DNA of 64,000 nucleotides from Octopus sinensis (taxonomy: Eukaryota): the NCBI RefSeq assembly GCF_006345805.1, contig NC_043005.1, forward strand, positions 35,030,001 to 35,094,000. Direction: 5' to 3'. The notes below the pieces were generated by a model that was not told the DNA's origin, searched no databases, and saw only the letters and a program-made list of their open reading frames with translations. This document shows positions 3,947 through 42,060 of this stretch, one piece after another. Position 1 is the first letter of the stretch. Every line of letters begins with the position of its first letter. The translations under genes and the position numbers were made by a program.

Positions 3947-4281
3947 TTACGTGGTTTTATCTGAATAAATGAATTGGTCTGATGTCTTTCGTGGAGAAGA
4001 ACTATTGTTTTTTTGAGTCTTGCCAGAGATCCTTCTAGCATCAGAAATCCTTCTAGATTCAGAGATCCTTTTAGGATCAGAGGTCTTTCTAGAATCTCTA
4101 CGAACACTGCCTAGTGACAGCCGTTCTGTCTCGGTAGTAGCAGCTACTTCCACTCTGTGGCGGCGCAAGCATTTACATGGCAAGACATTGGAAATGTAAT
4201 TTCTATTGAAAATCAGGTAAATCCATGGATTAGTGCAGCTGTTTAGACATGCCATCAGTAGAATTACTACGACACCAGCAT
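3947..4281 (-). CDS. CTR2: Cephalotocin receptor 2, last exon (TM7 and C-tail)
   Basis: tttttag|AT completes AAT (Asn), then AGVVVILLMACLNSCTNPWIY...SDKTT stop. NSCxNPWIY and an intron between TM6 and TM7 are hallmarks of this receptor family. Confidence 0.96.
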
Positions 4282-4429
4282 CTAAAAATGTTGGAAATAT
4301 AGAAGAAGAAAAAAGTTAAAAAGGAATATCAAAATCAAAATTGGAATAATGGAATAAATTGAAATATAAAAATTATTTCTGGTTGCTGTAATTCCTTCAG
4401 GAAGATAGCCCTGCTCAATCTGTATAAAA

Positions 4430-5745: not shown

Positions 5746-5792
5746 AGATTAGAATTAGTGGAAATAAATGGAAGATGAAAAATGTTACTTAC

Positions 5793-6729
5793 TTCCAACA
5801 ACTGTTTCATCAAACAGCCACCAGATCTGAGAGACAAAAAACGGTGACCAGCATATTATGTATGTGACTATCACAGCAAATGTAAGTTTCACAGAGTTGA
5901 GTTTTGCTTTGGAAAAACCATGCACTGAATGTGTTCTCAAGATTACTCCCTTTTTTTTCCGTCTCTGTGGATAACGAGTGTTTGCGTCTTTTTTAGTTTT
6001 AATGGCATGTCGATATTTTGCCCATATTGTATAGCAGATGGAACCATACGTGAAGAACAGAATCAAGATTGGGATGAGATAAAGAGCAAAAAAGATGTAT
6101 AAAGCATAAGCTGTGAGGACCCAAGCAGGTTCAAAATGAACCCAGCAGTCATAAATGCCACTTCCTTCATTTACCTCTTGCATTTGAAACAAGATTGCTT
6201 GTGGGATGCTAAAAATGGTAGCAATTGCATAAGCTATAAATATCTTACAATACACCATGCATGGAGTCCAAGTTTGGTTAGAGAGGGGATGACAAATTGC
6301 TCGATATCTGTCAACAGCTGTCATGATTAAGATATATGTAGACAAGTATAATGAAAACATCTGAGCATATTTGATGAAGCGGCACATGGCATCACCAGCC
6401 ATAAATCGAAATGTGATGTCCCATATAAGCTGTGGCAAAATGTTAAAGAAAGCAACTATGAGGTCTGCAATACTCAGGTGCAATATAAACATTTGCATGC
6501 GACGAACCTTTTTACGGCGCCATAAAAGGACCAACAGAACACAAAGATTATTGATAATTGCCAGAGTGAAACATGTACCCAACACAGCAATTTCAATTTT
6601 GACAAGTTTTTCATCTCGAATTGGATGGCTGCTGTTTGTGTTGTTGAGGAAGTCTGTTGTTGGTATTGTGCTTTGTGTATAGAAATCCAGGAAAAAACCT
6701 GATGGAGACGTACTTTCCACTTCCATTGC
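5793..6729 (-). CDS. CTR2: Cephalotocin receptor 2 (vasopressin/oxytocin-family class A GPCR), main exon, N-terminus to TM6
   Basis: Translation contains FILHLSIADLIVAFFNILPQLIWDITFRF, DRY, DCW and CWSPFF, typical of VP/OT receptors. Acceptor ttttgcag at 6730, donor A|GTAAGT at 5792 (phase 1). Confidence 0.96.
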
Positions 6730-7229
6730 CTGCAAAATCAAAAAAACAAAAAACATAAAGCAATATATAAATTATTTATAAATATAACTGAAAGATTGGT
6801 CGATTGTTATGGAAATTAAACACACAGACCAAACAATGAAAATCACATATATATAGTAGGCACAGGAGTGGCTGTGTGGTAAGTAGCTTGCTTACCAGCC
6901 ACATAGTTCCAGGTTTAGTCCCACTGCATGGCACCTTGTGTAGGTGTCTTCTGCTATAGCCTCAAGCTGCCCAAATCCCTGTGAGACAGAAACTGAAAGA
7001 AGCCCGTTGTGTATATATATATGTGTGTGTGTGTGTTTGTCCATCCAACATTGCTTGACAACTGATGCTGGTGTGTTTACGTCCCCGTAACTTAGCAGTT
7101 TGGCAAGAGACCGATAGAATAAGTACTAGGCTTACAAAGAAAAAGTCCTGGGGTCGATTTGGTAGACTAAAAGTGGTGCTCCAGCATGGCTGCAGTCAAA
7201 ATGACTGAAACAAATAAACAAATAAAAGA

Positions 7230-8262: not shown

Positions 8263-8339
8263 CATGTATGTATGTGTGTATGTACATACGTACGTATGTA
8301 TGTATGTATGTATATATATATATTTATATATATAGTGTA

Positions 8340-9306
8340 CTGTTCCATGATGGTAAGATCAGCAAAAAAAAAAAACACAATAAACACAATATTTGTTTTT
8401 ATGTGCTACTATTAGTTTCATGTACTGAGAACATGCCAAATAGTGTCTTATAACATGTCATGTGTACCACTACAATCATCAGACACTGCTCACATGGCAT
8501 AATGAACTAAAAATGAGACAAGTGATAAAGTGAGAAAAGGTGAGAAGGAAGTATATATAAAAGGTGGAAGATTGAAAAACCAGAAAATAAAAAAGAAATC
8601 AGAAATAAACAAAAAAGGATAATAAGAATTATTTCCCTTAGACCGTAAACTATAATGCTGAAAAGATTGTCGCTGAGAGCTTAAACCCTACACAATTCAG
8701 TGAGGAAAGTACTTTCCAATTCATCAACAGGAACTTAAGCATATGCTTACAACCGCTGAAAATTTTGGATCTAGAGTTCAGCAGTGAGTCACAGTTTTTA
8801 AATCTGAGTGTTTTCAGCTACACATAGCTTACATTTTTTTGATTTGTAAACCTAAGATGTGGATTTTCCAACTATTTTCCACTTTATCATGTGTGGTGCA
8901 GCGTTTGATTTCAAAACCCATACATGATTAGCCAACTTAGTAGCTATACTTTTGTGTCAGTGTCAGAAGGAAGATATGTTGGTTAGCATAGTGATTTTTA
9001 AAGTTGCCTTCACATAGTCTGATGTAGTTCTTCTTATCTGGTTGTGTTATCATCTAGCATTGCTGTAACCTCTGCCTCATATATGCTGGTCAGGTAGACA
9101 GGTTCCTGGGTCTCAACAGTTACGACTGAGAGTAGGCTCTTGGTGTTGATCTTGTGTAATGATACTCTTCATATAAGGGCAGCAGTTATATCGTAATTTC
9201 ACTGAGTACCTGTTAAATATTTTCTTGTATCTGTGTACCTGTACTATTTGGCATGTTCTGAGCACATGAAACTAATAGTAGCACATAAAAACAAATATTG
9301 TGTTTA
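8340..9306 (-). mobile_element. 5'-truncated Penelope-like element (GIY-YIG remnant, HHR-bearing pLTR, inverted partial pLTR)
   Basis: Broken minus-strand frames at about 8860-9130 read like IYEAEV..KNYIRLCEGNFKNHYAN..SSF..TKLANHVWVLK..IKWKIV. 9244-9306 is the reverse complement of 8381-8443. Confidence 0.72.
8403..8486 (-). ncRNA. Type I hammerhead ribozyme in the 3' pLTR of a Penelope-like element
   Basis: gtgt CTGATGA t tgta...taca t GAAA ctaatag TA gcac: intact core, helix I gtgt/gcac, GUA cleavage triplet. Confidence 0.72.
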
Positions 9307-9439
9307 CTAAACAATATATATATACGTATATAGGTAGATAGGTAGATATAAGTGTGGGTTGGTATAAGGAATGACAAAAATATTCCTCAACAAATTCCAT
9401 CTGACCCAAGCAAGCATAAAAACTGGGCATTAAAACAAT

Positions 9440-15547: not shown

Positions 15548-16205
15548 ATAATAATAATGAAATTATTGTATACAGTGCTCAGGTGCACCACAACTTGTCA
15601 GAAAGTGCATATAAAGTACATGCAGCAATGTAGAAATGTCTGGAAAGTGAACATGCTTGTGTGTGTATGGAGGGGAGAAAATCAAGTGTAGTGTTGGCGA
15701 ATCTCAGGAAACATGGAAGTTTTGAAGGATGCAGTGCTCCGACAACTAACAACTGATGCCGGCAGTTTGTTCCACGCTTCAGCAACTCTCAGCGTGAAAA
15801 AAATGTTTCCTGAAGTCATGGGAGCTGTGCTGTTTTCTTACTTTGTAAATATGTCCACGGGTGTTAGATGGGTGGATTTTGAAGAGGTGCTCAGAGTTAT
15901 TGTTTGTGCGATGGTTGATAATTTTATGGGTGTCTGCCAAGTCAGCTGCCAGACGTCGGAGTTTCAATGTGTCCATGCCCAGGGAAGTAAGGCGTTCAGG
16001 ATATGGCAAATGCCTGATGGAGGGTATTCTTTTGGTTGCACGTTGCTGAACAGCTTCCAGACGATTGATGTCCTGGGCAAGATAGGGGTTCCAGACCGGT
16101 GATGCAAATTCCAGGTGAGGTCTTACCGTAGCTATATAAAGCCGCAGATAGATAGCCGGAGAGCGGCTCACAAAGGATTTGGTGAGTAATGCCAAGACAC
16201 CCTCA
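15548..16205 (-). mobile_element. CR1-clade LINE 3' fragment
   Basis: LYIATVRPHLEFASPVWNPY..DINRLEAVQQRATKRI..YPERL..L..RRL.ADL..TRGH; a shorter copy of the same family is at 46115-46520. Confidence 0.85.
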
Positions 16206-16649
16206 GCCTTCTTGACAATTGGTTAAGGTCAAGCAACTGACTAGCAAATCTATGGTATTGAGCAGAATATTTGCTGTAACCTGTCTTTTACACCAAGACA
16301 AAACATGTACATGATAACACTTCCAATCAGTTAAGATCAGAAGCCATGAGAGCCTCTGCCTGGTATTGTATCTTGGCGGCACCTGTGCCGGTGGCACGTG
16401 TAAAAAGATTTGAGCAAGGTCATTGCCAGTACCACCTGACTGGCCCCCGTGCCGGTGGCATGTAAAAAGCACTCACTACACTCTCGGAGTGGTTGACGTT
16501 AGGAAGGGCATCCAGCTGTAGAAACTCTGCCAGATCAAGATTGGAGCCTGGTGCAGCCATCTGGTTTGCCAGCCCTCAGTCAAAATCGTCCAACCCATGC
16601 TAGCATGGAAAGCGGACGTTAAACGATGATGATGATGATGATGATGATG

Positions 16650-24544: not shown

Positions 24545-25095
24545 CCAGTTTAGAGCTTTTAAGCTACTGATCCCAAAGTACAGGATTCAAGCCTCTTCTC
24601 CTTATCTCCTCAAAGACATACATCATCTCGAAAGAGTCCAGAAGCTGGCTACCCGCATGGTTCTTGGTCTCAAGCATTTGTCTTATGAAGAAAGGCTGAA
24701 GACGCTTGACCTTTATTCTCTAGAAAAACAACGACTCCGTGCTGATCTCATTCTCGCTCACAACATCATAAGTGGAAAGTGAAACCTCTCAAAAGAGCTG
24801 TTTTTCACTCCTGCTCCAGAGCATCGGCTGCGGGGTCACTCCGAAAAGCTTTATCTGCGACGATTTCATCTCAATTGAAGGAGAAGGGGCTTTCTCCATC
24901 CGGATTGTGGATCCGTGGAATAAGTTGCCGGACAAGATAGTGAAGATGCCGACAACTGCTCGGTTCAAAGACTCTCTTGACCAGAAATGGCCTGAACTCT
25001 TTGCATAAACACCCTCCCTGTACATAACTCCATGTCCCCTTACATGGACTTGCTTTTGCTTTTTGAGCCAAAAAATTAACTTAACTTAACTTAAC
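24545..25095 (+). mobile_element. CR1-clade LINE 3' fragment (different family)
   Basis: YEERLKTLDLYSLEKQRLRADLI..RLRGHSEKL..FSIRIVDPWNKLP; (TTAAC)n tail. Confidence 0.78.
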
Positions 25096-25690
25096 TCTAA
25101 ATAGGAAAATCTGCAAACAGATCTCTGACTTGTTTTGGAGAATTTGTTACAGTTGGTTCCTCCAGAGTCATATCCCAATGATGATCATATCTGTCATAAA
25201 AAAATCACATTACAAAATTGCTGTAAATAATTGCTGGATTTTGTAATTAATTTCAATTATTCCCCAAATTTATTTCCAAGTTATAAAAATTGTTATAAAA
25301 AAAAATTCATCACAAAAAAAATCATGTAAAAAAAATCACTGAAAACAATTGTAATAATGAAAACTTAGGAATCCAAAATTTCAGGATTGTGGGTCCGGAT
25401 TTGGCCTGGAATATTTTAATTTACTCATAAAGTCGGCCAGATTCCAAAATGGTATGATATGTTGGGCTACAGCCTCTAAGAGTAAAGTTGAAAAAGTGTG
25501 ACACACTGACATACTGCCATTTGCATTTATTATATATATACAGTAAAAGCAATTAAGATTCAAGTGAGTTCTGTTGAATTCACATGAATGCGGTACTTAA
25601 CTTAGATGCACCAGAAATCTATATGGTATTAACCATAAGATAATGCGTGGTGATTATAAACAAGAAAAAAGCAACAAAAATGGATCAATA

Positions 25691-25780
25691 TTTCGGTACA
25701 ATTGTTTCGTACGAAGACCACCTTTATTAAGGTTGCAAATATTGCAGCAAATACAAGTGACCCGTACTCATCAGCCGAAA
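25691..25780 (-). ncRNA. Type I hammerhead ribozyme (left arm of palindrome A)
   Basis: Reverse complement of the + strand copy at 25932-26021. Confidence 0.85.
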
Positions 25781-25931
25781 AAACATCTGAGTTCTCGTAA
25801 CATCTAAGGGGCTGAGGCTACACTCCTGAAATATCAGGGATAGTTCTATAAAAATGATTTTTATAGAACTATCCCTGATGTTTCAGGAGTGTAGCCTCAG
25901 CCCCTTAGATGTTACGAGAACTCAGATGTTT

Positions 25932-26021
25932 TTTCGGCTGATGAGTACGGGTCACTTGTATTTGCTGCAATATTTGCAACCTTAATAAAGGTGGTCTTCG
26001 TACGAAACAATTGTACCGAAA
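25932..26021 (+). ncRNA. Type I hammerhead ribozyme (right arm of palindrome A)
   Basis: tttcgg CTGATGA gtacg...cgtac GAAA c aatt g TA ccgaaa: full core, palindromic helix III loop, predicted cleavage after A26015. Confidence 0.87.
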
Positions 26022-26053
26022 TATTGATCCATTTTTGTTGCTTTTTTTCTTAT

Positions 26054-26109
<56 letters not shown>

Positions 26110-26218
26110 TGTTTGTTTTTATGTTGTTATAATAAAGACAGTTTTACATTAGTCTGATGGGTTACTGTATGCTTTTGTAGAGTGCAAATTTATTATTCTT
26201 ATACAAGAATTTTGTTGA

Positions 26219-26261
26219 CAGTTACTTCAAAGTTTCATCCAGTTAAGCCATCATCAGACTA
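26219..26261 (-). ncRNA. Hammerhead-like motif, helix II decayed
   Basis: tagt CTGATGA tggcttaactggat GAAA ctttgaag TA actg. Confidence 0.55.
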
Positions 26262-26659
26262 TTCTGTTCTTACACGAGGCACAGGAGTGGCTGTGTGGTA
26301 AGTAGCTTGTTTACCAACCACATGGTTCTGGGTTTAGTCCCACTGCGTGGCACCTTGGGCAAGTGTCTTCTACTATAGCCTCGGGCTGACGGAAACTGAA
26401 AGAAGCCCGTCGTATATATGTATATATATATATGCGTGTGTGTGTTTGTGTGTCTGTGTTTGTCTCCCTAGCATTGCTTGACAACAGATGCTGGTATGTT
26501 TATGTCCCAGTTACTTAGCAGTTCAGCAAAAGAGACCGATAGAATAAGTACTGGGCTTACAAAAGAATAAGTCCTGGGGTCAAGTTGCTCGATTAAAGGT
26601 GGTGCTCCAGCATGGCAGCAGTCAAATGACTGAAACAAGTAAAAAAGTGAAAGAGAGTG

Positions 26660-27841
26660 CTTTTGTAACATTAACTGATAAACAGGAAAAAAATGCAGCA
26701 TCATCCAATACATTTCTCTATGAAAAACATACCAATACCCACGAAAAAAGTTACCTGAAAACTCTACAACACAAAGACAGAAAACTTTATAAAAATACTC
26801 AGGTGGAAAATTTACCATTATGAAAAAGACCAAAAAGAGAAATAGCGAACCAACAAATATGGATTTAAGGCAGTCAAATGTCAGCCTCCCAGCTCATTTG
26901 AAGATGACTTATTTGCACTGACTATGCAAATAAAATTCACCAAACAAACCAATAAATTGCAGAAAGAATTGAAACAGAAATCAACCACAAAAAAACCTCC
27001 CAAAACAAACAAACCCAAATCTATTTGTAAAATTGGACAAGACAAACAACTTCTACCAGATAAGTAGAATCTCTTATACCTGCATTCTTTGTAACATAAT
27101 CTCCAACGCATACAAAAAAAACAACAATAAAATATGCTGCTTTAAATAAAATAAACACCACAGCCAAAGAAATATTGAAATATCCACTAAACTTAAAATA
27201 GACAATAGAGTAGATACATTAACACCAAAATGCTCATATATAATGATGAAAGACTGCAAACCAAACTTCAATAGCAACAAAAAAAAAACCATAGACTAAT
27301 TCTCATCAAGAATAAAAATAAAATTAATATTACCTCTATGTAATAACACTTATGAAGTAATAGATTGGTTCAACAAAATCCTGAACAAAAATGGAAGCCA
27401 CTTCTTCCAGTTCAACTTAAAAGACTATTATGTGTTAAAAACAAAACCTTTCATTATAGCTGCTTTGAACTTCACAATAAACACCAAAATAGAAACAATA
27501 ATGCAAGCAAGAAAATTACTCCTCTTCCACAACAATGCTTGCTGGATTAAGAAAAACATTAAAGAACCACTTGATGTAAGCATGGGCTCAAAGGACTCAG
27601 CAGAGATAAGTGACACCATGGGTCTTGAGATGTTAGAAAAATTACGCAAAAATTTCCATACATCTCAGGTGGCCAATAGAGGGATTATGGATTACTCCTA
27701 CAAAGAAAATTCAATCCACAAAAAACTGATAAATCTACATCACCTCTTCAAAACATTGGGTTTCTCAATCACAGTAGAAACACAAAATCCAGGTCATGTG
27801 CCTATAGTAGAAAGGATTATTATGATTATAATTATTATTGT

Positions 27842-27879
<38 letters not shown>

Positions 27880-28700
27880 TTATTATTATTATTATTATAT
27901 AGAGATTAATATTATTATTATTATATAGAGATTATTATTATTATTATTATTAAATTATATCATATTTTAATTTTCATTTTCATACATGAATCATCATCAT
28001 CATCATCATCATCATTTAGCGTCCGTTTTCCATGCTAGCATGGGTTATATATAGATATTGATAAATAAAATTTATTTCTCACCAGATGGAGTATTTTTTT
28101 AGTGAACTTACCATCATGGAACAGTACATTATATATATATTTGTATATATCCACACACCCTCTATATCAGCCCCACTTTAGCAACTATCTATAATAGAAT
28201 TGGATGAAATTTTATAAACAAACACCAAAGAAACTCTATCTCCAGAAAGCAGGAAGTTTAAAATCTCTATATATCAATTAGATTGCTTATAGAACAATGA
28301 ACACCTGGAGAGAGAAACATAAGCATACAACCTCTACACAAATACTTTTATGAAAACCAAAGCACAAGAGAAACAATTGTCTATACTAAAATAGCCATGA
28401 CAAGCCTGACCCTAACAGATGAAAACAATAAATACCTTATATAACTACAAATAAAAATATGACCAACCTAAACTCACCACATACCTACATTCTTTTGCGA
28501 ATAATAGTTGACATACTCAATTACTTAGTGATTAAATACTGGACTTTTGTACCTTTGACTTTTGTACCTTTGATCTTTGACCAAAGCAAAAGGATTAAAT
28601 CCAATAATACCAAAAGCAACAAAAATACTGTCAAGCCTTGTGCCTACCTAACAAAAGAGAAACACCAAAGTTCTACATGCATAAATAAATTCTAAAGGAA
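26660..28700 (+). mobile_element. Decayed Penelope-like retroelement (RT and endonuclease remnants)
   Basis: ORF 27432-27902 has IMQARKLLLFHNNACWIKK...LDVSMGSKDSAEISDTMGL, like the PLE RT motif FDVTMGSxDGAE. It is preceded by FQFNLKDYY. Many stops and frameshifts; interrupted by microsatellites. Confidence 0.7.
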
Positions 28701-28986: not shown

Positions 28987-29017
<31 letters not shown>

Positions 29018-29167
29018 CAAAAACCAATAAAGATTCAAGTTAATTTAAATGAATTTACTTGAATATGGTACCTAACTTAGATGCACCAAAAAAAAACTAT
29101 ACTGTTTTAACAATACAGTAATGTGGGGTGATTATAAGCGAGAAAGAAGCAACAAGAATGGATAGGT

Positions 29168-29252
29168 TTTTAGTACAATCGTTTCATACAAGGACAGGCT
29201 TTATTAAAAAAAATTACAGCATATAAACGTGTCCCGTACTCATCAGCTAAAA
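29168..29252 (-). ncRNA. Type I hammerhead ribozyme (left arm of palindrome B)
   Basis: Reverse complement of the copy at 29911-30001, with a small deletion in the helix II loop only. Confidence 0.8.
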
Positions 29253-29910
29253 TACATGTGAGTTCTCTAGACATCCTAGTGGTTGAGGCTATACTCATGA
29301 AGTAATGTAGATAATTAAGTAACATAAACAGATTTCCAAAGTTCATTAAAGTTCTTTAAAGATGATGTACAGTCTTATCACAGAATTTTAAAAAAGTTCT
29401 AATAGCATCACAGAGAAGGTGACCTAATCCATAGAGCACATATGAATTTCCAGAGATATGATGAGGGATTACATACTCACAGAAGACAAATTTATCCATT
29501 GTTAATCACAACGAGGTGGGTCTCAATTCCTGCTTATTAGCATTACAGAGAGGTTGAATTAATCCTTTGTATAGATGCACAAATTGTGCATCTATACAAG
29601 GATTAATTCAACCTCTCTGTAATGCTAATAAGCAGGAATTGAGACCCACCTCGTTGTGATTAACAATGGATAAATTTGTCTTCTGTGAGTATGTAATCCC
29701 TCATCATATCTCTGGAAATTCATATGTGCTCTATGGATTAGGTCACCTTCTCTGTGATGCTATTAGAACTTTTTAAATTCTGTGATAAGACTGTACATCA
29801 TCTTTAAAGAACTTTAATGAACTTTGGAAATCTGTTTATGTTACTTAATTATCTACATTACTTCATGAGTATAGCCTCAACCACTAGGATGTCTAGAGAA
29901 CTCACATGTA

Positions 29911-30001
29911 TTTTAGCTGATGAGTACGGGACACGTTTATATGCTGTAATTTTTACAACTTTTAATAAAGCCTGTCCTTGTATGAAACGATTGTACTAAA
30001 A
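29911..30001 (+). ncRNA. Type I hammerhead ribozyme (right arm of palindrome B)
   Basis: ttttag CTGATGA gtacgggac...gtccttgtat GAAA c gatt g TA ctaaaa; predicted cleavage after A29995. Confidence 0.83.
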
Positions 30002-30779
30002 ACCTATCCATTCTTGTTGCTTCTTTCTCGCGTATATATATATATATATATATAGTATGTATTGAGGTGTGAGGTCAACACTGTTAAACAATGAATAATT
30101 AAACCAAATATAGGAAAACTGAATACTCAAATTTGTAAAGAATTAAAAAAAAAATTTTAATTAGACAGTAGTAGTAGCCACAGCAGCAACAGCAAGAACA
30201 ACACCAAAGAATGCAAAATAGTCACATAGGATAATTAATTACATAGGGCAAGTTACCTGGTTTCCATAGCATATTAATGACTGAGATAACAACATCCTTC
30301 TTGAATGGGATGTCAAACTGTTCCAAGGTTACTCATTTACAGTTGAGAGGTGTGGAGTAATGTGAAATGAAGTGTTTTGCTCAAGATCATATTGCACTGC
30401 TTGTGTCAAGAACTGAAACCATGAGCTTGCAATTATGAGTGCAACAGACTAACCACTACACCAAGACATATCCAGGTATATATATTTTTTATTGCTCTGT
30501 CACCAGTTACATGGTTGACTATCAATACAAATGAATAGATAATGAAACTGAACTATTGGGAAATATTAATTTTCTCCTATAAATTTACATATTGATTTTT
30601 TTTCTGTAGATTTGAAAAGCTGATTGTGGTTTTCACCCAAAATAAAATAATACAAAAATCAATGAGGGACAGATACCCAGTTGCTCAACCTGCTAGAGAT
30701 CGCAACCAAATCTCCTTGAAATCACACTCTACTGTTTTAAAATTTGAAGGACACATTAAGCAATCTAGTTATCAATACT

Positions 30780-32014: not shown

Positions 32015-33998
32015 TCAGTAGTTTTATTTCTATAGTGTGTTTTCACTTCACTACTTACTGCAGCCATGTGTGTTTTGGGTATGTGCTGTGGTTTGCTGTG
32101 ATGCTCTTATGGTTACTGTATTGAAAGTGTTTTGTGTAGGATGTGTGCAGTGCCTAGTAATGCAATTTTCTGTATGTTACATGTATTTGTAAGTCCTGGT
32201 GTTTTTGTTATGTATTTGTCTGAACATTTTTTTTATCATACCTAATGTGCCTACTATGATAGGAATTGTTTCTGTTTTTAGATTCCACATTCTGGTTACC
32301 TCTATTTCCAGGTCTTTGTATTTTGAAAGTTTCTCCATTTCTTTTAGAGACACGTTGTCATCTGCTGGTATTGATTTATCAATTAGAAAGCATTTTTTTT
32401 CTTCATAATCTTTGACAACTATATCTAGTCTGTTGGCCTTAATTTCTCTATCTGTGTGTATTGGCATATCCCAGAGTATGGTTGCTTTCTCGTTTTCTGT
32501 GACCTTTTCTGGAGTGTGCCTATATAATCTTTTTCTGTTGTTCCATAGTGTTGGCACAGCTTCCAGTTTATGTAGGTCCCAACACTGTCATGTCTGTGAA
32601 TATATTCCTTCTTATCCAGGACTGGGCAGCCAGAGATAATATGATTTATTGTTTCTTGTCCATCCCCACATATTCTGCAGTTACTTGTTATGGTTATTTT
32701 CATTATATGTTTTTGGTAATTTCTGGAGGTGAGGCTTTGGTCTTGTGCTACAATTAAAAATTCTTCAGTCTCTGCTTTGAGTCCTGAGCTTCTCAACCAT
32801 TGCTGGGATTTTTCTGTGTCTATTTCTTTTGCATTTAGTTTAGCTCGGTATTTGTCATGAAGGGACTTTTCTTGCTATCGTTTTATCATGGTCAGTTGCC
32901 GTTCTAGTTTTAGTTTGGATTTCATTTGTTTTATAGCTTTTGTTGTTTCTTCTTCTTCATATTTGTTAGGTAGTATTTCTTGTTTGTATTTGTCAGCTTC
33001 CTTAAATACTGAAAACAGATTTTTGTTTTGCTTGTGTTTTGTGGCTATTTGTATTAGTTTTCCTCGCTTCTGAAGTAGGTATTTCTGCAGTCCTATGGTG
33101 GTTATTTTATAATAGTTTTCCAGCTGTATAAGGCCTCTACCACCTTCTATACGTTGTATATATAGCCTTTCTATGTCAGATTTTGGGTGGTGCATCCTAG
33201 ATCCTGTCATTATTTTTCTTGTTTTCCTGTCTAGTTTGGTTAGCTCATTTAGTGTCCAGTTGAGGATATTATAGCTGTAACTTATAACAGGGACGGCTAA
33301 AGTGTTAGTACCTATTATCTTGTTTTTAGCATTGAGCGCTATTTTCAGTATTGATCTAATTTGTCTATAGTATTCTTTCTTTACTTTCTCTTTCATTTGT
33401 GTGTGCTGTATCATATCTAGTTCATTGATTCCTAGATATTTGTATGTCTGGCTCTGGTCTAATTCTCCTATTTCATTGGTTTTATCTAGTGTGATGTTGC
33501 TACTCTTAACTAGTTTTCCTCTTTTCAGGGTTGCTTTGGCACATTTTTCTAATCCAAATTTCATATCCATTTCTTTGGTAAACCTATGTACTGTCTGTAG
33601 TAGTGCTTCCAACTGTTTATCATTTGTAGTGTATAGTTTTAGGTCATTCATATATAAAAGGTGGCTGATTGTTTTACTGCAACATTTGTATCCACATCCA
33701 GTTCTGTTTAGCATGTCAGATAAAGGTGTCAGTGCCAAACAGAAAAGGAGTGGAGAGAGCATGTCTCCCTGGAATATTCCTCTTCTAATGGGGATGGCTT
33801 TGGTTTTCACGAGTCCCTCTTTTGTTTGGAGCTGTAGCACTGTCTGCCATTTATTCATAGAGTGTCTTATATATTTTATAATTATTGGTGCTACCTTGTT
33901 GATTGCTAGTGTTTCAAGGATCCACACGTGAGGAATACTATCAAAAGCCTTTCAGTAGTTGATCCAGGCCATACAGAGACCTTTCCTCTTTCTGTAGC
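32015..33998 (-). mobile_element. R4/Dong-clade non-LTR retrotransposon, 5'-truncated
   Basis: RT motifs GIFQGDMLSPLLF and HLLYMNDLKLY, CCHC finger CRICGDGQETINHIISGC, restriction-like endonuclease RLDIV..LID..KLSKY; frameshifted; (TTA)n at both ends. Confidence 0.88.
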
Positions 33999-38289: not shown

Positions 38290-39222
38290 AAACACTAGAA
38301 ATATACAGAAAATAGACTTCATCAAATGCCAGGGAAGATACCTAGAAGTAGTTGATAGCTTTCATAATCTAGATGACCAAGTCAGCAGTGGTGGGGGATG
38401 CTCTGAGAGCATAGTTGCTAGAGTAAGAATAGGTTGGGCAAAGTTCAGAGAGTTTCTACCTTTGTTGGCAACAAAAAGCCTCTTCCTCAGCGTGAAAGGC
38501 AGATTGCATTATGCCTGTGTGTGAAGAGAAATGCTACATGGCAGTGAAACAAGGGCTGTGATGGCAGAGGACATGCAAAAGCTTGAAAGAAACGAATCTA
38601 GTACACTCCATTAAATGTGCAATGTCAGTGTGAATCTACAGCTGAGTGTTAATGTTTCAAGAGAAAAATTGGGCATAAGAGGCCTCATATATGGTGTGCA
38701 AGAGCAATGAGACCAACCCATATCTCCCAGATCTAGCATATGGCATCATTGCATCAATGAGAGATAGCTGAGAGGTTTGTTATGATTGTATGGTCATGTG
38801 ATGCATAAGAATGAGGACAGCTGCATACAGAAGTGCTGATCTCTAACTGTGGGGGAACCTTAGAAGAGATAGACCCAGGAAGACATGAAACGAGGTGGTG
38901 AAGCATGATCTTTGAATGTGGGGTCTCATGGAGGCGATGACAAGTGATCATGTCCTTTGGTGATTTGCTGTGTTAGAGACTTGTCAAGCCAAGTGAAATC
39001 ATAGTTGTGGTTGGTGCTGGTGACATGTAAAAGCACTCATACCAGTGACATGCAAAAAGGCACCCACTACACTCCTGGAGTGGTTGGTGTTAGGAAGAAC
39101 ATCCAGCTGTAGGAATCAAGCCAAAATCAGACTGGAACTTGGTGCAGCTCTCTGGCATACCAGTTCCAGTCAAGCTGTCTAACCCATGCCAGCATGGAAA
39201 GCAGGTGTTAAATAATGATAAT

Positions 39223-39225
<3 letters not shown>
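38290..39225 (+). mobile_element. RTE-clade LINE 3' fragment (same family)
   Basis: Nucleotide similarity to 4600-5160; ends in the acccatgccagcatggaaagc..ttaaa(tga)n tail. Confidence 0.78.
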
Positions 39226-39256
<31 letters not shown>

Positions 39257-40615
39257 TACGTTTGCATTTGTGTGAATGTGTTGCATACACATATAGAATG
39301 TATACATACACAAAAAAATGTATGCATGTGTGTGTGTAGTGAAAGAGAGAGAAAGATACACAGAGGCTTAGGTGACACCTAATTATATATATTAGGTATA
39401 TATATATATATTAGAGGCAGAGTAAGAACGTGTGTGGGAAAATTTAAGGGAGCTGTTATCTTTCCTGGTTATGAAAGGTTTCTCTTTGTGTTTAAAGAAG
39501 AGATTGGCTGATGCTTTCAGATGAGGTTCGATGTTGTATGGTAATAAAACCTGGAAAATAAATGTGGGAGATGAGCAAAGGTTGGAAAGAAACAAGGCAA
39601 GCATCCTTCCCTTGTAAAACAGCACAGATTAAGTTGACAAAATATACAGGTACACAAAAAATCTGCTGTTGTGTGCAAGAAAGAAGACTGTAAAGGCAGC
39701 ATGGAGAAGAGACTGATGTGGAGGATAAGAATTGAGTAAAAAAAACTGTCAAGAAATCCAAATGAAAGAAATTTGTGGAAGAGGAATATCATGGAAGACA
39801 TAGATGTGTTGAAGGCTGGTCTGAAGAACTTAAAAGATCTTAAAAAATAGCAATATGCTGTGTTGTGTGTATGTGTATGCACACACGCATGCACGCACTC
39901 ATGCATGCACGCACACACACACACACAAACACATGAAATAATTTGTCTTTAAGAGTAGGACATGAAGTAGAAAAACTACAATTAATAGCATGTAAATACT
40001 GGGTTCTATATATATATGTGTGTGTGTATGTGTGTATATATATATATATAGATATATATATGTAAGTGCATGTATGCATGTATGTATGAATGAATGGATT
40101 TGCTTGTTTTTTTATGACAATCTAAATAGAAAACTCAATATCTTTTGGATAAAATACTAAATATTTATTTAGATGAATGCTAGCAGTTATTTATATATCT
40201 AAATGTGCATGAAATATGCAAATAAATATAAACTGTATAGGTGCTAGGGAGTTTGACTAACTTAGCTTACAACTGCTTCTGCAATAAGATGCAGTGGACT
40301 CATAGTTGAGTGCCTGAATAATACCTTATAGCTTCATCAGAGCCTCAATTTTGAAGTACAATTTTACACTTTGGCTCCAATGAAGCTTTAAGATGTCACT
40401 CAGGCACTCAACTATGAGTTTACTGCATCTTATAGCAAAAAGAGCTGTAAGTTAATGAAGTTCATAAAATAATTGCTTATTCCTTTGTCATTTCATTTTC
40501 TTATTATCACTCTATACTTGTCTAACACTTTGTTCTGAAGCATATATATATTGGGCTCTACACCAGGTCATTAGTCTTGCAATGCCTAAGCAATATACAC
40601 ACATTACATATATAT

Positions 40616-40669
<54 letters not shown>

Positions 40670-42018
40670 TACGTTTGCATTTGTGTGAATGTGTTGCATA
40701 CACATATAGAATGTATACATACACAAAAAAATGTATGCATGTGTGTGTGTAGTGAAAGAGAGAGAAAGATACACAGAGGCTTAGGTGACACCTAATTATA
40801 TATATTAGGTATATATATATATATTAGAGGCAGAGTAAGAACGTGTGTGGGAAAATTTAAGGGAGCTGTTATCTTTCCTGGTTATGAAAGGTTTCTCTTT
40901 GTGTTTAAAGAAGAGATTGGCTGATGCTTTCAGATGAGGTTCGATGTTGTATGGTAATAAAACCTGGAAAATAAATGTGGGAGATGAGCAAAGGTTGGAA
41001 AGAAACAAGGCAAGCATCCTTCCCTTGTAAAACAGCACAGATTAAGTTGACAAAATATACAGGTACACAAAAAATCTGCTGTTGTGTGCAAGAAAGAAGA
41101 CTGTAAAGGCAGCATGGAGAAGAGACTGATGTGGAGGATAAGAATTGAGTAAAAAAAACTGTCAAGAAATCCAAATGAAAGAAATTTGTGGAAGAGGAAT
41201 ATCATGGAAGACATAGATGTGTTGAAGGCTGGTCTGAAGAACTTAAAAGATCTTAAGAAATAGCAATATGCTGTGTTGTGTGTATGTGTATGCACACACG
41301 CATGCACACACTCATGCATGCACGCACACACACACACACAAACACATGAAATAATTTGTCTTTAAGAGTAGGACATGAAGTAGAAAAACTACAATTAATA
41401 GCATGTAAATAATGGGTTCTATATATATATGTGTGTGTGTATGTGTGTATATATATATATATATAGATATATATATGTAAGTGCATGTATGCATGTATGT
41501 ATGAATGAATGGATTTGCTTGTTTTTTTATGACAATCTAAATAAAAAACTCAATATCTTTTGGATAAAATACTAATATTTATTTAGATGAATGCTAGCAG
41601 TTATTTATATATCTAAATGTGCATGAAATATGCAAATAAATATAAACTGTATAGGTGCTAGGGAGTTTGACTAACTTAGCTTACAACTGCTTCTGCAATA
41701 AGATGCAGTGGACTCATAGTTGAGTGCCTGAATAATACCTTATAGCTTCATCAGAGCCTCAATTTTGAAGTACAATTTTACACTTTGGCTCCAATGAAGC
41801 TTTAAGATGTCACTCAGGCACTCAACTATGAGTTTACTGCATCTTATAGCAAAAAGAGCTGTAAGTTAATGAAGTTCATAAAATAATTGCTTATTCCTTT
41901 CTCATTTCATTTTCTTATTATCACTCTATACTTGTCTAACACTTTGTTCTGAAGCATATATATATTGGGCTCTACACCAGGTCATTAGTCTTGCAATGCC
42001 TAAGCAATATACACACAT

Positions 42019-42057
<39 letters not shown>
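39225..42057. repeat. Tandem duplication, unit about 1413 bp, bounded by (TA)n
   Basis: Identical ORF-track entries offset by 1413 (39392 vs 40805); a few SNPs differ between the copies. Confidence 0.92.
40264..40453. mobile_element. 190 bp fold-back with a decayed HHR in each arm
   Basis: About 80 bp imperfect arms around an unpaired spacer; duplicated at 41678-41867. Confidence 0.7.

Positions 42058-42060
<3 letters not shown>

Follow-up and report, generated by a model that had tools for sequence, protein, structure and literature searches.

The window, i.e. the whole 64-kb stretch of Octopus sinensis DNA that was analysed, carries two groups of exons on the minus strand. Those of a rhodopsin-family receptor (5785-6771 and 3947-4315; Pfam 7tm_1, E 1e-39) presumably resemble the vasopressin/oxytocin type, and those of a tyrosine kinase domain (62870-57640) are, as we take it from their motifs, EGFR-like. 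Palindrome A, the element under study, lies about 19 kb upstream of receptor exon 5785-6771 and more than 31 kb downstream of 57640, the last exon located for the kinase. The window also contains remnants that look like LINE reverse transcriptases (32177-33951 and 15779-16222 on the minus strand, 24620-25000 on the plus strand) and a tandem pair of 1.44-kb units (39209-40645 and 40621-42058). The two units are 99% identical and represent either a recent duplication or an assembly product.

Palindrome A and its sister element B

Palindrome A spans 511 bp (25541..26051) and is composed of head-to-head arms with a hammerhead motif in each; it is the longest of the 2146 inverted pairs listed for the window. 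At its left end there is a 3′ tail of 121 nt (25541-25661, minus strand), for which two hairpins are predicted. The tail is attached to the left arm only (25662-25855, minus strand, 194 nt), a 5′-truncated pLTR-like copy. A single nucleotide, G25856, marks the centre and thus the fold-back junction. It is followed by the right arm (25857-26051, plus strand, 195 nt), an inverted, tail-less copy with the same truncation point. The arms are distinguished by one substitution (25832 vs 25880) and by a homopolymer indel, with A6 at 25665-25670 and T7 at 26042-26048. TA repeats flank the element on either side, the left tract being short and the right one comprising 26.5 units. A previous sequence-only reading had described a palindrome with a 1-nt loop and near-identical arms, a tail of about 120 bp on the left only and a (TA)n setting, all of which agrees with our analysis. 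A is devoid of coding sequence. Folded as RNA, its tail (25541-25665) has a z-score of -3.19, and none of 200 shuffled sequences was equally stable.

Two features are new relative to that reading, namely target-site duplications and a sister element. The left copy of the duplication around A (25529-25540, plus strand, 12 bp) forms the start of the (TA)n tract, and the right copy (26052-26063, plus strand) runs into (TA)26. Both copies agree in 11 of 12 bases, or in 13 of 14 when the two preceding T residues are included. With one substitution in a 194-bp arm and one mismatch in a 12-bp duplication it is plausible that A is young. Inverted arms can, however, be homogenised by conversion or assembly polishing, and for this reason the youth of A stays only plausible.

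The sister element, B (29018-30031), likewise comprises a tail, two arms, a 1-nt centre and two hammerheads, so that the anatomy of A is seen in two independent copies. Its tail (29018-29137, 120 nt) is located on the left side, its arms (29138-29582 and 29584-30031; 445 and 448 nt) surround the centre at 29583, and the hammerhead cores are found at 29246 on the minus and 29917 on the plus strand. B is framed by an exact 23-bp duplication of the sequence G(TA)11 (28995-29017 and 30032-30054, both plus strand), with (TA)n on either side, and its arms are set apart by three indels and no substitution. A and B share 76% identity over 292 nt (E 2e-54). Common to both are the tail length (121/120 nt), the 1-nt centre, the (TA)n target and the end of the short arm, which coincides within 2 nt. 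In contrast, the fold points differ, being placed 82 nt (A) and 334 nt (B) upstream of the hammerhead core, as do the lengths of the duplications, 12 bp with one mismatch and 23 bp without any. The B tail has a folding z-score of -3.61 and beats 200 of 200 shuffles. Covariation between the two tails is weak, amounting to one double-sided change in 19 pairs with two sequences compared. A 47-aa frame in B gave no Pfam match. The arms of B also contain a 31-nt imperfect direct repeat with a spacing of 135 nt (29400-29430 and 29535-29565, mirrored at 29600-29630 and 29735-29765).

Hammerhead motifs and predicted folding

The type I hammerhead motifs of A are located at 25691-25780 on the minus strand, with a predicted cut after 25697, and at 25932-26021 on the plus strand, with a predicted cut after 26015. 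The plus-strand motif consists of a 6-bp stem I, the core (25938-25944), a domain II of 59 nt with 7 closing pairs, the GAAA element (26004-26007) and a self-complementary stem III (2 bp plus a 4-nt palindromic loop) with a GUA site. The claim that each arm holds an intact hammerhead is therefore confirmed in that complete motifs are present on both strands, 'intact' referring to the sequence. When both strands of the 64 kb were scanned with a descriptor, four hammerhead motifs were returned, two in A and two in B, and a relaxed scan of the window added a single one, at 8482 on the minus strand.

Comparison of A with B supports the assignment. Despite an overall identity of 76%, all core bases are kept and the motifs are complete in 4/4 arms. 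Furthermore, the pairing of stem I is maintained across two double-sided changes. Stem III is self-complementary in both elements (dimer duplex -6.4 and -5.8 kcal/mol), and domain II measures 59 nt in A and 60 nt in B. At gathering score, Rfam yielded no match anywhere in the window. Ten matches at E values up to 10 were miRNA/sRNA hairpin models below their thresholds, with no hammerhead family among them, and were rejected. Because Rfam gave no hammerhead match, the call for A rests on core motifs, pairing and covariation.

The 96-nt A motif is not unusually stable on its own (z -1.34). In a 106-nt fragment around it the stems are predicted to form (stem I 0.90, stem II 0.83), and only such a short fragment behaves in this way; when the entire right arm is folded by itself, misfolding is predicted (stem I 0.0, stem II 0.002). 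Full-length A RNA of either strand is predicted to adopt a single long hairpin (-379 and -371 kcal/mol) in which hammerhead stems I and II have pair probabilities of 0.0. The sequence-only reading correctly placed the antisense ahead of the ribozyme on either strand. Its proposal that read-through RNA would be locked as dsRNA is borne out at the level of folding prediction, which gives one hairpin without hammerhead pairing. The further suggestion that RNA starting inside could cleave has to be toned down: the 106-nt fragment may fold as expected, but the right arm alone would misfold, and published hammerheads of Penelope-like elements (PLEs) by themselves cleave poorly or not at all (PMC4209133, PMC11167929).

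Family copies, coding relatives and known elements

Public sequencing runs reveal that A and B belong to a high-copy repeat family. Parts of the words of 25100-26400 occur in 20 of the 24 listed runs, none of which has half of them (best 0.44), so these runs probably derive from other individuals or species; none of them is listed as an RNA run. Contigs of four runs were aligned to 24990-25900, a stretch that ends 44 nt past the A centre. Over 25548-25795 the summed contig depth, which is not a copy number, reached 4e4 to 3e5 in 3/3 DNA-like runs, far above the depth of single listed contigs (18-85). Nearer the centre (25796-25857) it amounted to 2e3-2e4 in the three DNA-like runs. This drop upstream of the hammerhead may be due in part to divergence between subfamilies (contigs have loose ends at 25775 and 25780). 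In run X2, 27 contigs terminate at 25531 in the TA repeat, indicating that many copies share their end base in (TA)n. Other family contigs run past the A centre: four contigs of run X1 have different letters before 25855, and record 16 of X12, which we guess to be an RNA run, continues unfolded for 292 further letters upstream of the centre. It follows that A is 5′-truncated at this point. Fifteen of the loose X1 letters were aligned by eye to B 29825-29839, just upstream of the place of the A centre on B, with 13 being equal. A differs from nearly all aligned contigs at 25648, 25733, 25798 and 25812. As B has the same base as A at 25733, we read these deviations as subfamily or species differences and do not use them for dating. 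The left flank of A (25250-25520) shows high summed depth in three DNA-like runs and is therefore a repeat as well, which puts A at the edge of an older repeat.

Two remnants in the window show that PLEs of the Hydra type were active in this genome. The first one (8336-9310, minus strand) is decayed and retains the endonuclease C-terminus, the hammerhead core at 8482 and a 45-nt tail. At its 5′ end it carries a 64-bp inverted tail-less copy (62/64 identical), and its domain II measures 56 nt. It thus follows the same plan as A and B, with the ORF present. The second one (about 26690-27780, plus strand) is situated between A and B. It is a frameshifted reverse transcriptase (RT) with RWK and DKT motifs, broken off at (ATT)n. 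A HMMER search retrieved 568 relatives at E up to 0.001, a word-index protein search confirmed 0 of 328 candidates, and Pfam provided no name for this remnant or for two full-length relatives. The same 22-mer followed by a TA repeat is found at 8336-8357 (minus strand) and 28107-28128 (plus strand); it is probably the 3′ terminus of the Hydra-type family and is unlike the terminus of A and B. A link of A and B to the neighbouring Hydra remnant was sought at the DNA level and not found: there is no similarity, with 17 and 156 of 200 shuffled sequences reaching an equal score.

A coding parent was sought in several ways. All 12 frames of A and B scored below 0 bits against a Hydra-clade profile, and tblastn detected no RT or endonuclease sequence attached to either element. 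The absence of an ORF is expected because both are truncated copies. The 334 nt upstream of the B hammerhead contain no Hydra C-terminus, yet in metagenome Hydra loci 10 of 40 hammerheads are more than 240 nt behind the ORF end. These loci, 77 in number, come from the best 80 of 548 confirmed stretches. None of them has DNA similarity to A or B (best E 0.034 over 25 nt). A hammerhead follows within 700 nt of the ORF in 34 of the 56 loci with enough downstream DNA, and in all 40 hammerheads domain II has 10-25 nt, whereas the three elements of the window have 59, 60 and 56 nt. Inverted self-matches in 12 of the 77 loci proved uninformative, the contigs being short and often collapsed. Loci L039 and L013 have two hammerheads, one behind each of two ORF ends, and represent tandem Hydra-type PLEs. 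Searches with the exact A hammerhead pattern in metagenome contigs and with the A tail pattern in viral contigs gave 0 hits each, and 16 candidates from the Hydra alignment in viral contigs resulted in 0 confirmations. A and B could belong either to the Hydra clade or to another hammerhead-bearing clade.

PLE insertions have been described as 5′-truncated, often with an adjoining inverted copy, with a tail of 30-40 bp confined to one end and a pLTR that contains a hammerhead (Craig et al. 2021, PMC8557442; repeated in PMC8969392). This inverted, truncated and tailed layout is already in print, and the A locus is ordinary in its architecture. PLEs with endonuclease are further defined by an RT plus GIY-YIG ORF and a partial tandem of the type pLTR-ORF-pLTR in their full-length copies. 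Like them, A and B are 5′-truncated, carry an inverted copy at that end and have a one-sided tail, albeit of 121/120 nt and hence 3-4 times the published length. They also have a type I hammerhead motif in the pLTR, as supported by sequence and covariation, and a duplication of variable length at an AT-rich or microsatellite target.

The Hydra clade is marked by RWK and DKT motifs, a CxCX5C linker and an endonuclease without CCHH. PMC8557442 gives (TA)n as its target in 26 of 27 listed families, and Penelope-13_HM as a case in which the 5′ copy is inverted and both strands carry a hammerhead. A and B resemble Hydra-clade elements (Penelope-13_HM, Hydra-1_Obim) in the (TA)n target, the type I hammerhead located 100-250 nt before the 3′ end and the short self-complementary stem III, and Penelope-13_HM in having one hammerhead per strand from an inverted 5′-truncated copy. 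Unlike these elements, they have no RWK/DKT-type ORF attached. The A hammerhead sequence differs from that of Hydra-1_Obim, and the A loop II comprises 49 nt versus 3-10 nt in 26 listed rows. Insertion in (TA)n together with a complete hammerhead is found in A and B, though it is not diagnostic of the clade. A word search for two A motifs in the available consensus files of PMC8557442 remained negative. Naiad PLEs, listed from Octopus in the same source, also combine a (TA)n target with inverted copies and a tail; they are described there as lacking a canonical hammerhead, whereas the motif is complete in 4/4 arms of A and B.

Inserts of Penelope/Poseidon-type elements in Adineta vaga are flanked by inverted pLTRs and 9-10 bp duplications (Arkhipova et al. 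2013, PMC3846280). A and B are similar to these inserts and to the Anolis PAc element (PMC11167929) with regard to inverted pLTRs of which one is tailed, target-site duplication, a palindrome at the inverted junction, an AT-rich target and a structured tail RNA. They differ in their tail of about 120 nt (31 bp in Pen2a), in which no ORF start was recognised, and the whole A insert is palindromic without an ORF in between. Minimal metazoan PLE hammerheads occur in pairs 100-700 bp apart on opposite strands, and their cleavage is low and dimer-dependent (Cervera and de la Pena 2014, PMC4209133). Type I topology, a palindromic helix III suited to dimers and opposite-strand pairs a few hundred bp apart are shared features. 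What sets A apart is its 6-bp stem I, its stem III of 2 bp capped by a 4-nt palindromic loop, and its much longer domain II. Non-LTR retrozymes resemble A and B as short non-coding animal repeats that contain a type I hammerhead, but they consist of units of about 300 bp in direct tandem array (PMC7229834). A and B each form one inverted pair accompanied by a tail and a target-site duplication, and no tandem array covers A.

Origin of the inverted arms

Taken together, A is very likely a 5′-truncated PLE insertion in (TA)n. Points that speak against it include the lack of attached RT or endonuclease sequence in A and B, the missing DNA similarity to the neighbouring Hydra remnant and the 77 metagenome loci, and the dimensions of tail and domain II, which exceed the published ranges. 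Based on PLE biochemistry, a GIY-YIG endonuclease from a full-length element elsewhere would nick both (TA)n strands 12 bases apart. The top-strand nick could then prime reverse transcription at the tail end, so that the tail, the hammerhead and about 80 more bases would be copied. The cDNA end would fold back at a short inverted repeat and extend itself into the second arm, which would finally be joined to the other target end at a fixed tail boundary, with repair filling in the duplication.

Provided that A is a PLE insertion, we lean slightly towards snap-back of the cDNA as the source of the second arm. Palindromes at the junctions of Adineta vaga elements have likewise been read as self-priming on an antisense template (PMC3846280). 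The last five loose letters of the X1 contigs are the reverse complement of 25856-25860 and thus form a 5-bp inverted repeat at the fold point, which fits self-priming. Such a repeat within 2 nt exists at 2529 of 63976 window positions (4%), and the contigs stem from other copies, perhaps of another species. Two observations disagree with snap-back in its simplest form: a plain fold-back of the sequence in the related contigs would leave a centre 2 nt longer than that of A, and an additional cause has to be invoked for the constant end of the short arm.

The latter would be accounted for by twin priming, a possible but less probable route within the PLE reading. Here, each nicked strand would prime its own cDNA, one at the tail end and the other at an inner start site, and the ends would anneal at a small inverted repeat. 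A PLE protein has indeed been found to cut and extend both strands at AT-rich DNA, with two start sites bounding the tail (Frangieh et al. 2024, PMC11167929); the same work showed that the hammerhead depends on the protein and that insertion in vitro can do without the hammerhead. Twin priming would explain the common short-arm stop of A and B, and the asymmetric inversion of remnant 8336-9310 is in line with it. However, random microhomology should give mostly asymmetric junctions, yet 2/2 family copies in the window are symmetric to 1 nt. Later deletion or conversion, as a third route to a PLE insertion of this form, appears rather unlikely.

Alternatively, A could be a non-autonomous palindromic element, retrozyme-like or MITE-like, that was copied ready-made from a master copy. 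The high depth over tail and hammerhead without any ORF seen would be compatible with such an origin, and animal retrozymes have been proposed as PLE derivatives (10.64898/2026.07.22.740005). We nevertheless consider it improbable, as A and B fold at different points, unfolded contigs extend upstream of the A centre, retrozymes are direct tandem repeats (PMC7229834), and the tail-side hammerhead would be masked in the predicted hairpin of the full RNA.

Still less credible is a fold-back artefact of assembly or library preparation. The near-perfect arms, the 1-nt centre and the tandem duplication of 1.44 kb, itself a possible assembly product, might raise this suspicion, and among the contigs listed, which come from runs sharing at best 0.44 of the words, none bridges the A centre or either junction of the exact locus. 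On the other hand, the mirrored sequence of both elements ends at the tail boundary and does not continue into the flank, A and B each lie between the two copies of a target-site duplication with dissimilar flanks, and the arms are not identical (one substitution plus one indel in A, three indels in B). Foldback and MITE DNA transposons have terminal inverted repeats at both ends and a fixed-length duplication. An origin as a foldback transposon or another DNA-level inverted repeat with an incidental hammerhead match is the least probable of all, because, for all the long arms, TA-rich target, missing ORF, lack of an Rfam match and unremarkable z-score of the 96-nt motif, the tail is one-sided so that the A arms are not terminal on the left, the duplications vary between 12 and 23 bp, and the core bases have all been conserved although overall identity is 76% and stem I has undergone double-sided changes.

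Returning to the PLE reading, A is most likely a dead-on-arrival copy, since it codes for nothing and the predicted full-length hairpin would block hammerhead folding. The antisense lock would then most likely be a by-product of PLE integration and not a regulatory device; the locking of two hammerheads by their own antisense can be understood without assuming regulation. As the ends, duplications and junctions of A and B can all be read, the two copies offer a direct handle on the mechanism of PLE integration. They also widen known ranges, with a tail of 120 nt (30-40 nt hitherto) and a domain II of 59-60 nt (10-25 nt).

The literature searched and the part of the PMC8557442 supplement that was covered contain no description of this family. 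It is tempting, though speculative, to assign A and B to a high-copy PLE family, hitherto undescribed, that regularly inserts as perfect hairpins, generated by snap-back at tiny inverted repeats and characterised by a fixed stop 120 nt from the 3′ end, a conserved structured tail and a 60-nt domain II. If this were true, thousands of junctions could decide between self-priming and twin priming for the inversions and tails of PLEs, and the host genome would be seeded with near-perfect dsRNA hairpins. A joint between opposite strands at another position of the element, 25611/25793, is present in runs X2 and X3.
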